From positions 1 through 7,648 of the IMG/VR virus record IMGVR_UViG_2617270973_000013: a DNA stretch of 7,648 nucleotides, one strand, 5' to 3'. Shown here piece by piece: positions 4,474 through 7,256 of this stretch. The first letter of the stretch is position 1; each line of letters begins with the position of its first letter. A program made the translations under genes and the position numbers. The stretch is from a virus. Taxonomy: Duplodnaviria > Heunggongvirae > Uroviricota > Caudoviricetes. Below the pieces are notes generated by a model that worked only from the letters and a program-made list of their open reading frames with translations, was not told where the DNA came from and ran no database searches.

Positions 4474-5238
4474 ATGCATCGTATAGACACGAAAACCGCG
4501 CAGAAGGATAAGTTCGGCGCGGGTAAGAACGGTTTTACCCGTGGTAACCCCCAGACCGGCACACCTGCCACCGATCTGGATGATGACTACTTTGACATGT
4601 TGCAGGAAGAACTCTGCAGCGTGGTGGAGGCATCCGGTGCCAGCCTGGAGAAGGGGCGGCATGACCAGCTGCTTACCGCGCTTCGTGCGCTGCTGTTAAG
4701 CCGCAAGAATCCGTTTGGTGATATCAAATCGGATGGCACGGTGAAAACGGCTCTCGAAAACCTTGGTTTGGGAGAAGGTGCTCCAGCTATTGGCGTTCCG
4801 TTCTTCTGGCCGTCCGCCGCAATGCCAGATACCGTAATCGAAAGCTGGTCCGGCATGGTGTTTTTGAAGTTCAACGGCGCGAAATTCTCTGCCACTGATT
4901 ACCCTGTGCTGGCGAAAGTGTTTCCTTCGCTGGTATTACCTGAAGCCCGCGGTGATTTCATTCGTATCTGGGATGATGGTCGTGGTGTAGATAGTGGACG
5001 TGGATTACTTAGTACGCAGTCTGACCTGATGAAACAATTTACTTTGCAATACTACGGTCCTTCTGCTGGTACTGGAACAAGAACGGTTTTCGCCCTCCAG
5101 AGTAATGCGAACGGCATATATACGAGTGGTATTAGTCAGAATGATGGTAGTGGCACCGCTGCGGCTTTTAATGTACCAGGCGGCACCGAAACACGCCCAC
5201 GTAACATTGCATTCAACTTTTTAGTAAGGGCTAAATAA
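4474..5238 (+). CDS. Tail fibre protein (constant N-terminus Sc, residues 1-~97, fused to variable C-terminus Sv in the present orientation)
   Basis: 254-aa ORF. The N-terminus has a [16 protein letters not shown] motif resembling Mu S / P2 H N-termini (from memory). The C-terminal part ([10 protein letters not shown]...[15 protein letters not shown]) resembles a phage tail-collar / receptor-binding domain. The crossover site sits in-frame at codons 94-101 (LENLGLGE). Stop TAA 5236-5238 overlaps the tfa ATG (TAATG). Confidence 0.8.
4751..4776. repeat. Left crossover site (Hin/Gin-type, 12-2-12): CTCTCGAAAACC-TT-GGTTTGGGAGAA
   Basis: Both half-sites fit the TTnTCnnAAACC pattern recalled for hix/gix/cix sites. 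A perfect 14-bp inverted copy of 4763-4776 occurs at 6608-6621. The site lies inside the stf coding sequence. Confidence 0.8.
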
Positions 5239-5831
5239 TGAAACCTGTTTTTGATAAAAATGGGCTGGCTACAGTGCCGGGTGATATGCGTTGTTTTTAT
5301 TATGATGCAGTAACGTCTGAATATACTGGCTGGTCTGATGAATATATTAATACTGGTGTAAGTATGCCCGCCTGTTCCACTGGTATTGACCCGGGCGAAT
5401 ACATTCCGGGGAAAGTGGCAGTATTTACGGGTAAGGGATGGAGCCATGAAGAAGACCACCGCAATGAGACTGCTTACTCAATCGAAAATGGCGCAGCTGT
5501 TACAGTGGATTATATCGGTGCCATCAAAGACGGTTATGTCACGCTTTCACCGTTAACGCCATACGATAAATGGGATGGTGAGAAATGGGTGACAGATACT
5601 GAGGCACAGCATAGTGCCGCAGTAGACGCGGCAGAAGCACAGCGCCAGTCGCTGATTGATGCTGCAATGGCTTCCATCAGTCTGATTCAACTGAAATTGC
5701 AGGCCGGGCGGAAGCTGACGCAGGCAGAAACAACCCGACTTAACGCCGTGCTGGATTACATTGACGCGGTGACGGCAACAGATACCAGCACCGCGCCGGA
5801 TATCATCTGGCCTGAACAGCCGGAGGCGTAG
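5238..5831 (+). CDS. Tail fibre assembly chaperone (Tfa / Mu U-like)
   Basis: 197-aa ORF coupled to stf. The C-terminus (LDYIDAVTATDTSTAPDIIWPEQP) carries the conserved tail-fibre-assembly motif and an N-terminal FYYD motif. Confidence 0.8.
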   Translation: MKPVFDKNGLATVPGDMRCFYYDAVTSEYTGWSDEYINTGVSMPACSTGIDPGEYIPGKVAVFTGKGWSHEEDHRNETAYSIENGAAVTVDYIGAIKDGYVTLSPLTPYDKWDGEKWVTDTEAQHSAAVDAAEAQRQSLIDAAMASISLIQLKLQAGRKLTQAETTRLNAVLDYIDAVTATDTSTAPDIIWPEQPEA

Positions 5832-6243
5832 GCCATTCAATATCTGGAGCACTGGAAATATCAACCATTTCCAGTGCGTCCAGATAATCAAGCCATGAAT
5901 TATATTGCGCCAGTTCCTCACCTTTCAGACGACCAATAGCAGCCTTTCCTGGCCACTGCTTACTGTTAATATATTCATTAACTCGATTTATGAGTGCCTG
6001 TTTTTTTCGTTCCGCTTCTGACAGTTGTTCTTCATGAGTTAGCGGCGGTACGTCATCCCATGCAGGATAGCCATCATCACCCGCAACTCTCACCTTCCCT
6101 GGAGGTGGGGACAGGTACTTAATAAATATATCCTCATCAACTTCAACTCCATTATGAGGCCATAACCCAGACTCCTTATACTGACTTTCCAGAGTAAATG
6201 GGTAAAACATATTAGTTTTAGCATCGTAAAGATATTTACTCAT
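5803..6243 (-). CDS. Alternative tail fibre assembly chaperone (Tfa' / U'-like) inside the invertible segment
   Basis: Begins MSKYLYDAKTNMFYPF, a typical Tfa N-terminus, and ends with the conserved LDYLDALEMVDISSAPDIEWPTPP motif. Start ATG at 6243-6241 is preceded by AGGAAG and lies 1 nt after the Sv' stop (TAA at 6247-6245). The 24 extra upstream codons in the ORF track (to 6315) overlap the end of Sv' and are judged not to be the real start. Confidence 0.8.
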   Translation of the reverse strand: MSKYLYDAKTNMFYPFTLESQYKESGLWPHNGVEVDEDIFIKYLSPPPGKVRVAGDDGYPAWDDVPPLTHEEQLSEAERKKQALINRVNEYINSKQWPGKAAIGRLKGEELAQYNSWLDYLDALEMVDISSAPDIEWPTPPAVQAR

Positions 6244-6244
6244 T

Positions 6245-6621
6245 TTATCTTCCTGTAGCAAACCAGCGGCAACCAGCGACAGTTGGAACATTGAAGGATG
6301 GATTTCCTTTATCAAGAGATCCCAGGTTCTCTGCTATGACATTTGAGTTAGTCAATTTATAGAATTGCCATACTGACATTTTCCCTGCCACAGGAGCCTG
6401 GTCATGTTCATTAATAGAAATGACGGCTGTCGGAAATGGGATAGGAAAATTAATCAAAACTTCATTTGTTGTGGCCCCAGTTAGCCCCCATTGTTCAATA
6501 TAACCATCCGGGCTTCGCCTCCATCCCGTCGTTGTATCTCCCCCACACTCCCACGCTGACATATCAGGAATTTGGTTTTGCCCGTTACCCACATCCCGTT
6601 TTGCCGCTTCTCCCAAACCAA
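6245..6621 (-). CDS. Alternative tail fibre C-terminal cassette (Sv'), start-less; expressed only as an in-frame fusion to Sc after inversion
   Basis: - strand ORF with no ATG; the track's initial 'M' is a TTG at 6616-6614. Directly stitching the sequence after inversion at the crossover core gives ...ENLGLGE-AAKRDVGNGQ..., in frame with stf codons 1-98. It is immediately followed by tfa' in the stf-tfa arrangement. Confidence 0.75.
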
Positions 6622-6633
6622 CCTTTCAAATAT
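6608..6633. repeat. Right crossover site: TTCTCCCAAACC-AA-CCTTTCAAATAT (inner half canonical, outer half degenerate)
   Basis: Positions 6608-6621 are the exact reverse complement of 4763-4776. The core AA is the complement of the left core TT, as required for inversion. The site ends 59 bp upstream of the invertase ATG. Confidence 0.8.
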
Positions 6634-6660
6634 TTTTCTGAATCAGGTGATATTTCGCCT

Positions 6661-6687
6661 CTTCTCCTGTTTTTACAACAGGAGAAG
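6661..6687 (+). promoter_or_regulatory. Perfect 10-bp stem / 7-nt loop hairpin (CTTCTCCTGT-ttttaca-ACAGGAGAAG) whose 3' arm contains the invertase Shine-Dalgarno
   Basis: Inverted repeat read directly from the sequence. No U-tract follows on either strand, so it is not a canonical intrinsic terminator. It could equally be a palindromic protein-binding site. Confidence 0.4.
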
Positions 6688-6692
6688 CACTC

Positions 6693-7256
6693 ATGATTTA
6701 CGGGTATGTACGTGTATCAACAAATCATCAGGATACAGAGTTGCAACGTCTTGCACTTGAGTCAGTTGGCTGTGAGCGAATTTATGAAGAATATGCCAGT
6801 GGCAGAACAGCTAATCGCCCTGTGTTAAAGGAATTAATTACGGTGATGAAAAGTGGAGATGAGTTGATTGTCTGGAAGTTAGATCGGATAGGGAGAAATG
6901 TGCTGCATGCGCTATTGATGTTTCAAAATCTGCACGAAAAAGGTGTTAATTTTCGGAGTATTACAGATGGCGTAGACCTGAAAACAGCAAGTGGTCGCTA
7001 TAATTTCCGTAATATTCTTTCTGCTGCGCAGTATGAATCTGATTTGAATAGCGAGCGAACTTTAGCTGGTTTGGCTATTGCCAGATCCAAAGGCCGGATT
7101 GGTGGGCGTAGACCGAAGTTTAGCGACGAGCAGTGGCAACAGATGGGAGCGCTCATAGCGGCAGGGAAATCACGGCGTTATGTTGCACGTATCTATAACG
7201 TTGGGCTATCAACCCTATATAAACGATTTCCTGTTACTGGCATTCAAACGAAATAA
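6693..7256 (+). CDS. Serine recombinase, DNA invertase of the Hin/Gin/Cin/Pin family
   Basis: 187-aa ORF with N-terminal YGYVRVSTNHQDTELQ (catalytic Ser in the YVRVST motif), VWKLDRIGRN, and C-terminal GRIGGRRPK and helix-turn-helix-like region (RRYVARIYNVGLSTLYKR). Strong SD GGAG at 6681-6684, 8 nt before the ATG. It lies directly outside the right crossover site. Confidence 0.9.
   Translation: MIYGYVRVSTNHQDTELQRLALESVGCERIYEEYASGRTANRPVLKELITVMKSGDELIVWKLDRIGRNVLHALLMFQNLHEKGVNFRSITDGVDLKTASGRYNFRNILSAAQYESDLNSERTLAGLAIARSKGRIGGRRPKFSDEQWQQMGALIAAGKSRRYVARIYNVGLSTLYKRFPVTGIQTK

Follow-up and report, generated by a model that had tools for sequence, protein, structure and literature searches.

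Introduction

Site-specific inversion that switches the tips of tail fibres has been known for decades from the G segment of phage Mu, the C segment of P1 and the P segment of the E. coli prophage e14. In the Mu G segment (S/U, S'/U', Gin) and the P1 C segment (Cin), a constant part of the fibre gene, Sc, lies outside the segment, start-less Sv and Sv' parts with their chaperones lie inside it, a serine invertase is encoded beside it and the crossover site falls within the fibre frame; the Mu and P1 records annotate Sc as outside and Sv' as 'expressed when in (-) orientation'. PinE and PinQ invert the e14 P segment, as measured by qPCR and sequencing (Kirigo et al. 2025, PMC12529663), and phase variation of this segment has been described in clonal cultures (PMC4272514, citing Plasterk and van de Putte 1985 as well as Mehta et al. 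2004); between them, the two articles document the inversion by PCR/qPCR and sequencing. StfE2, a chimeric e14 product that begins outside the P segment, reportedly blocks adsorption of T2 (PMC12529663).

The same architecture is present in the locus described here, which is closely homologous to the P segment of e14 and has uncharacterised variants as its cassette alleles and invertase. A start-less frame on the minus strand, Sv', is very probably joined in frame to Sc when the adjacent invertase flips a segment of 1859 bp, an event that would exchange the fibre tip together with its chaperone. The locus is one more case of the Mu/P1/e14 fibre switch, with the crossover site as a module boundary.

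The prophage and its tail genes

The window (the whole stretch of DNA analysed, 7,648 nt) comes from an SfV/e14-type prophage that has a Mu-like baseplate, and it contains the distal tail genes. The gene for a DNA-circularisation protein, cut at the window start, is accompanied by baseplate genes similar to gp44, gp45, gp46, gp47 and gp48 of Mu, and the rest of the window comprises the fibre gene (4474-5238), two convergent assembly genes, the Sv' frame, a serine recombinase gene and a DinI-like gene. Near-identical prophages reside in complete E. coli genomes, the best match being that of CM2010-0578/1 (98% coverage, 97.7% identity), whose element ends with a tyrosine integrase adjoining dusA. 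The closest deposited phage is Escherichia phage SKA5 (OR670062; 76% coverage, 98.0% identity).

Crossover sites and the invertible segment

The fibre and chaperone genes, together with the sites that bound the invertible segment, are as follows.

4474-5238, plus strand: tail-fibre gene S as now assembled (Sc and Sv), 254 aa, an open reading frame
4474-4767, plus strand: Sc, constant N-terminal part (aa 1-98), outside the invertible segment or at its edge
4751-4776: left crossover site, CTCTCGAAAACC-TT-GGTTTGGGAGAA, core TT at 4763-4764, lying inside the S frame and reading ENLGLGE
4763-6621: invertible segment of 1859 bp, with a core at either end; reversed in FDAARGOS_1250 (99.4%)
4778-5238, plus strand: Sv, variable fibre tip now expressed, from the inversion analysis and matches to T4 gp37 and StfE
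5238-5831, plus strand: U, tail-fibre assembly chaperone for Sv, 197 aa (Pfam Caudo_TAP, E 5e-28)
5803-6243, minus strand: U', assembly chaperone for Sv', 146 aa, ATG at 6243 (Pfam Caudo_TAP, E 3e-34; a CDS of 441 nt in the related prophage L001)
6245-6621, minus strand: Sv', presumably silent alternative fibre tip, 123 codons, beginning at the crossover block and ending with TAA (6247-6245), from the list of open reading frames and in-silico inversion
6608-6633: right crossover site, TTCTCCCAAACC-AA-CCTTTCAAATAT, core AA at 6620-6621

Two inverted sites of 26 bp, each an imperfect dyad around a 2-bp core, bound the segment. Their shared block of 15 nt, TTGGTTTGGGAGAAG, has exactly two copies, at 4763-4777 on the plus strand and at 6607-6621 on the minus strand; only 0.03 matches are expected by chance, and none of 200 shuffled sequences contained two copies. 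A repeat finder extends the inverted repeat to 20 nt at 90% complementarity. Between the sites lie two convergent pairs of a fibre tip and a Caudo_TAP chaperone, with all four genes open and with U and U' overlapping tail to tail by 29 bp (5803-5831). A longer version of U' that starts at a TTG and reaches 6315 is a mechanical extension of the reading frame.

The DNA encoding Sc is 96.8-97.8% identical to that of e14 and SfV-type phages up to positions 4777-4781, and phages SfV, SfI, SfII and SfIV match from window position 1 up to 4777, where the crossover block has its last base, and no further. The site is therefore a module junction even in phages that lack the switch.

A third crossover site, as a shufflon-like system with multiple inversions would possess, was also sought; one additional match was obtained, which has three mismatches, lies inside the invertase gene and is within chance expectation. 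A separate inverted repeat of 15 nt (14 of 15 positions; 4778-4792 and 5838-5852) begins directly after the left crossover block, and both of its arms encode (G/S)APxI, one at the start of Sv and the other near the C-terminus of U'. Since no site-like sequence flanks the second arm and the repeat is missing from e14, it is probably a chance similarity. RNA families scoring above gathering thresholds were absent from the window.

The Sv' cassette and its predicted fusion product

On the minus strand, no stop interrupts the Sv' frame between 6625 and its TAA (6247-6245). An in-frame TGA (6628-6626) precedes it, three codons 5' of the TTG at 6616 with which translation could first begin. The head of the frame contains no ATG, this TTG being the sole candidate there, and its first residues (K-V-G-L-G-E) are encoded inside the right crossover site; an in-frame ATG is first reached at codon 19 (6562), which has no Shine-Dalgarno (SD) pairing. 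The preliminary description had placed Sv' at 6245-6621 on the minus strand, without an ATG of its own and starting at the crossover block. The coordinates were recovered when re-derived from the list of open reading frames, and the account of the frame head is correct.

In-silico inversion of 4763-6621 yields one uninterrupted frame of 221 aa in place of the present fibre of 254 aa, with the junction ...ALENLGLGE|AAKRDVGNGQ... and the protein end ATGR. Neither cassette has a start of its own, each is accompanied by its own chaperone gene, and at the core both share the frame of Sc. The residues and lengths are exactly those predicted earlier (Sc(1-98)-LGE-AAKRDVGNGQ..., 221 versus 254 aa), and neither the frameshift nor the stop codon at the junction that had been named as counting against the prediction appeared on re-translation. 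The earlier claim that Sv' is in frame with Sc only after inversion is likewise borne out by the in-silico inversion, as well as by the contiguous fusion genes described below.

The two tips belong to different families. In the fused fibre, residues 134-221 match the Gp53-like_C domain (PF21882, E 6e-12) over profile positions 3-84 of 84, at 46.3 bits against a gathering cut-off of 24.9, and weaker sequence matches in the PDB connect Sv' to the short tail fibre gp92 (E 6e-6) and to R2-pyocin fibres (E 0.01). Sv matches the tip of T4 gp37 (PDB 2xgf, E 5e-9) and a short tail fibre. NCBIfam holds no family for the fibre or the chaperones and returns the invertase only below threshold.

In the proposed switch, the invertase (6693-7256) would bind the two 26-bp sites, cut at their 2-bp cores, exchange strands and flip 4763-6621. 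S has its start codon and first 98 codons outside the segment, and any S promoter must lie upstream of them; because of this position, inversion would replace the tip and chaperone that follow Sc. Whichever pair faces Sc (Sv with U or Sv' with U') would be transcribed and translated with it, so that a fibre of 254 aa with a T4-gp37-like tip would give way to one of 221 aa with a Gp53-like tip. By the precedents of Mu, P1 and e14, Sv' is probably silent in the present orientation, and receptor specificity, and with it host range, presumably changes with the switch.

Both orientations in other genomes

Seven complete E. coli genomes contain the in-silico fusion gene (667 nt) as an unbroken CDS, at 97.6-99.0% identity. 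FDAARGOS_1250 has a 99.4% identical copy of window positions 4754-6621 that is reversed with respect to Sc, and the in-silico inverted window is colinear with this genome over 2714 nt that span both junctions. The inverted right junction, in which reverse-complemented Sv lies beside this type of invertase, was found in seven genomes, and the present right junction was found at full length in one. TUM9754, whose prophage is integrated beside dusA, and phage SKA5 have invertase flanks that are 99.6-99.8% identical and carry parts of the segment in the opposite orientation. Such variants show, by between-strain comparison, that both arrangements occur in nature with breakpoints at the predicted cores and that inversion of the segment has taken place within this lineage. 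Inversion of this particular copy would be expected from the behaviour of Mu, P1 and e14.

A search of 5,426 complete E. coli genomes for the whole S gene as it now stands gave no match covering at least 80% of its length in a single place. This reflects the mosaic tip and the orientation and not novelty, since the tip is present in FDAARGOS_1250 at 99%. The Sv tip is a mosaic; its C-terminal third (5008-5196) falls in an alignment gap against the L001 prophage, which is otherwise 97.5-98% identical.

The cassettes also travel between elements. In FDAARGOS_1250 (L004/L007), the 99.4% identical segment adjoins a different invertase of 184 aa, the size of PinE, and a GIY-YIG gene replaces the DinI-like gene, so the segment and the invertase have been exchanged independently. 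The Sv'-U' cassette is found at an identity of at least 99% in P2-like prophages (L009, 2464-3888; L010, 3469-3882), which indicates cassette exchange between tail types.

The invertase and its putative control elements

The invertase gene and the two candidate control elements at its 5' end are as follows.

6660-6686, plus strand: perfect 11-bp hairpin, CTTCTCCTGTT/AACAGGAGAAG, over the invertase SD AGGAGAA, just 5' of the ATG at 6693
6693-7256, plus strand: serine DNA invertase of the Gin/Cin/Pin group, 187 aa, from Pfam and Gin structures
6711-6782, plus strand: putative recombination-enhancer position, compare nt 19-90 of P1 cin; partially conserved, from the P1 annotation and alignment

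The reading frame is intact and encodes a serine recombinase beside the segment, with Ser9 kept in the motif YVRVST and a C-terminal helix-turn-helix (Pfam Resolvase, E 4e-36; HTH_7, E 7e-12). The protein shares 55% of its residues with PinE, 52% with Cin and 51% with Gin, whose structures 3uj3 and 4m6f it matches at E 4e-56. RNA folding of 6634-6705 gives -24.8 kcal/mol (z -4.8), and the hairpin at 6660-6686 might keep translation of the invertase, and hence the rate of switching, low.

The window aligns with the annotated cin enhancer and retains C at +7 in both putative Fis sites. At the distal one, positions 6763-6777 (nt 71-85 of the invertase gene) read CAGTTGGCTGTGAGC, with C in place of G at -7. 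Because of this substitution the strict Fis consensus has no match in the window's invertase gene, while cin, gin and pinE each match at nt 71. The recombination enhancer may thus be weakened or altered.

Alternative explanations and annotation

That the open frame and the repeat are mere chance features is refuted. The frame is short, and nothing else speaks for coincidence; against it stand the expectation of only 0.03 matches for the repeat, the Pfam match at E 6e-12 and the conservation of the cassette at an identity of at least 99% in many genomes. It is somewhat easier, if still improbable, to regard the switch as a fossil, this copy being locked and Sv' a permanently silent remnant: the enhancer positions depart from the Fis consensus, a strong hairpin buries the SD of the invertase, and decay is common among related prophages, L008 and L011 having frameshifts and truncated fibres. 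Against this, the invertase frame is intact with its catalytic Ser9 and helix-turn-helix, both crossover sites are intact and the four segment genes are open; moreover, both orientations are found beside this type of invertase in different strains. A functional switch joining Sv' to Sc accounts best for the locus.

A different explanation would make Sv' a small gene in its own right, translated in any orientation from the TTG at 6616 into a free Gp53-like protein of 123 aa that might, for example, mask a receptor. The TTG is preceded at 5 nt by the SD-like GAAAGG, whose pairing with the 16S rRNA tail (-6.3 kcal/mol) lies beyond the 10th percentile of the background (median -2.7) and within the range of real genes here (-4.3 to -7.4); PGAP annotates a CDS, and the e14 product that starts outside the P segment offers a parallel in its reported block of T2 adsorption (PMC12529663). 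The SD-like bases are, however, already explained because they form the outer half of the recombination site. The frame has no ATG and an in-frame stop three codons 5', the ATG leader of e14 (MMPFACYFFIFINV) is absent, and full-length fibres of other prophages have this cassette as their C-terminus. Promoter signals directed into the Sv' cassette do not exceed chance, the only leftward promoter-like match (6720-6693, 9 of 12 positions) being within chance expectation (4 found, 5.2 expected). Independent expression of Sv' is therefore unlikely, and such a gene would be a very surprising outcome. Equally doubtful is a variant that could coexist with the switch, in which the outer half of the crossover site doubles as the ribosome-binding site of the TTG, so that the parked cassette always yields a little free tip domain. 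If this were true, the free tip would be the 123-aa Sv' at present and a 157-aa Sv after inversion, and it could mask a surface receptor and exclude other phages, as a start-codon-poor analogue of the e14 StfE2 effect.

For the inversion-dependent fusion of Sv' to Sc, which remains the preferred reading, the main value lies in annotation, since the silent cassette regularly appears in annotations as a spurious gene with a TTG start. Such misannotation had been anticipated in the preliminary description, and PGAP indeed calls a 372-nt TTG-start 'gp53-like domain-containing protein' of 123 aa (L001 7727-8098, corresponding to window 6245-6616). The combination of GAAAGG and TTG probably explains this call. 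In the same prophage (NZ_CP087564.1, 5974-6720, WP_274480369.1) RefSeq/PGAP names the expressed fibre 'integrase', and several other genomes carry the same label, which is a propagated misnomer for a tail fibre. Given these calls, host-range prediction should weigh both fusion products.

Comparison with known systems

The switch shares its plan with Mu and P1 and differs from them in scale. The segment measures 1.86 kb, compared with about 3 kb in Mu and 4.2 kb in P1 (record coordinates), and the fibre 221 or 254 aa, compared with 504 aa for Mu S, the N-terminus of which is only marginally similar to Sc (E 0.04-0.2). Phage SKA5 carries an invertase that is 99.5% identical beside a segment deposited in the opposite orientation and holding other tip alleles. 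SfV (L012) has a single fibre and chaperone followed by gtr O-antigen genes, and no invertase.

The Sv'-U' cassette, at least 99% identical and bounded by the same site, occurs in P2-like prophages in both an expressed and a silent position. In FDAARGOS_1248 it is expressed as the end of a fibre of 474 aa; in E. coli W it is silent beside an invertase. The constant part of the fibre is different and longer in these prophages, and their tail and baseplate module is also different.

The closest parallel is the P segment of e14 in E. coli K-12 MG1655, which has the same gene order (ymfQ, stfP, tfaP, tfaE, stfE, pinE). StfP differs from Sc by one substitution in residues 1-98, the left crossover site is the same in both elements, the right site agrees in its core and inner half, and both elements carry the repeat core TTGGTTTGGGAGAAG; the published e14 repeat, 5'-TTGGTTTGGGAGAAGG-3', is the window's site sequence (PMC12529663). 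The genes tfaP and tfaE overlap by 29 bp, as do U and U', and within the segment conservation with e14 at the DNA level is confined to 5803-5831 and its flanks (89%). The stfE ATG leader MMPFACYFFIFINV, which lies outside the segment in e14, is missing from the window, where a stop is found instead. e14 is a remnant, whereas the element in the window has the full Mu-like baseplate set seen in SfV; because of this set, and because the near-identical L001 prophage lies beside an integrase and dusA, the window prophage is not considered a remnant of the e14 type. The same two tip families, Gp53-like and gp37/collar-like, are represented in both elements by diverged alleles, Sv being 40% identical to StfE and Sv' weakly and patchily similar to the StfP tip. 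The two are also set differently, as the MG1655 e14 reference expresses the Gp53-like tip and the window carries the gp37-like tip in the expressed position.
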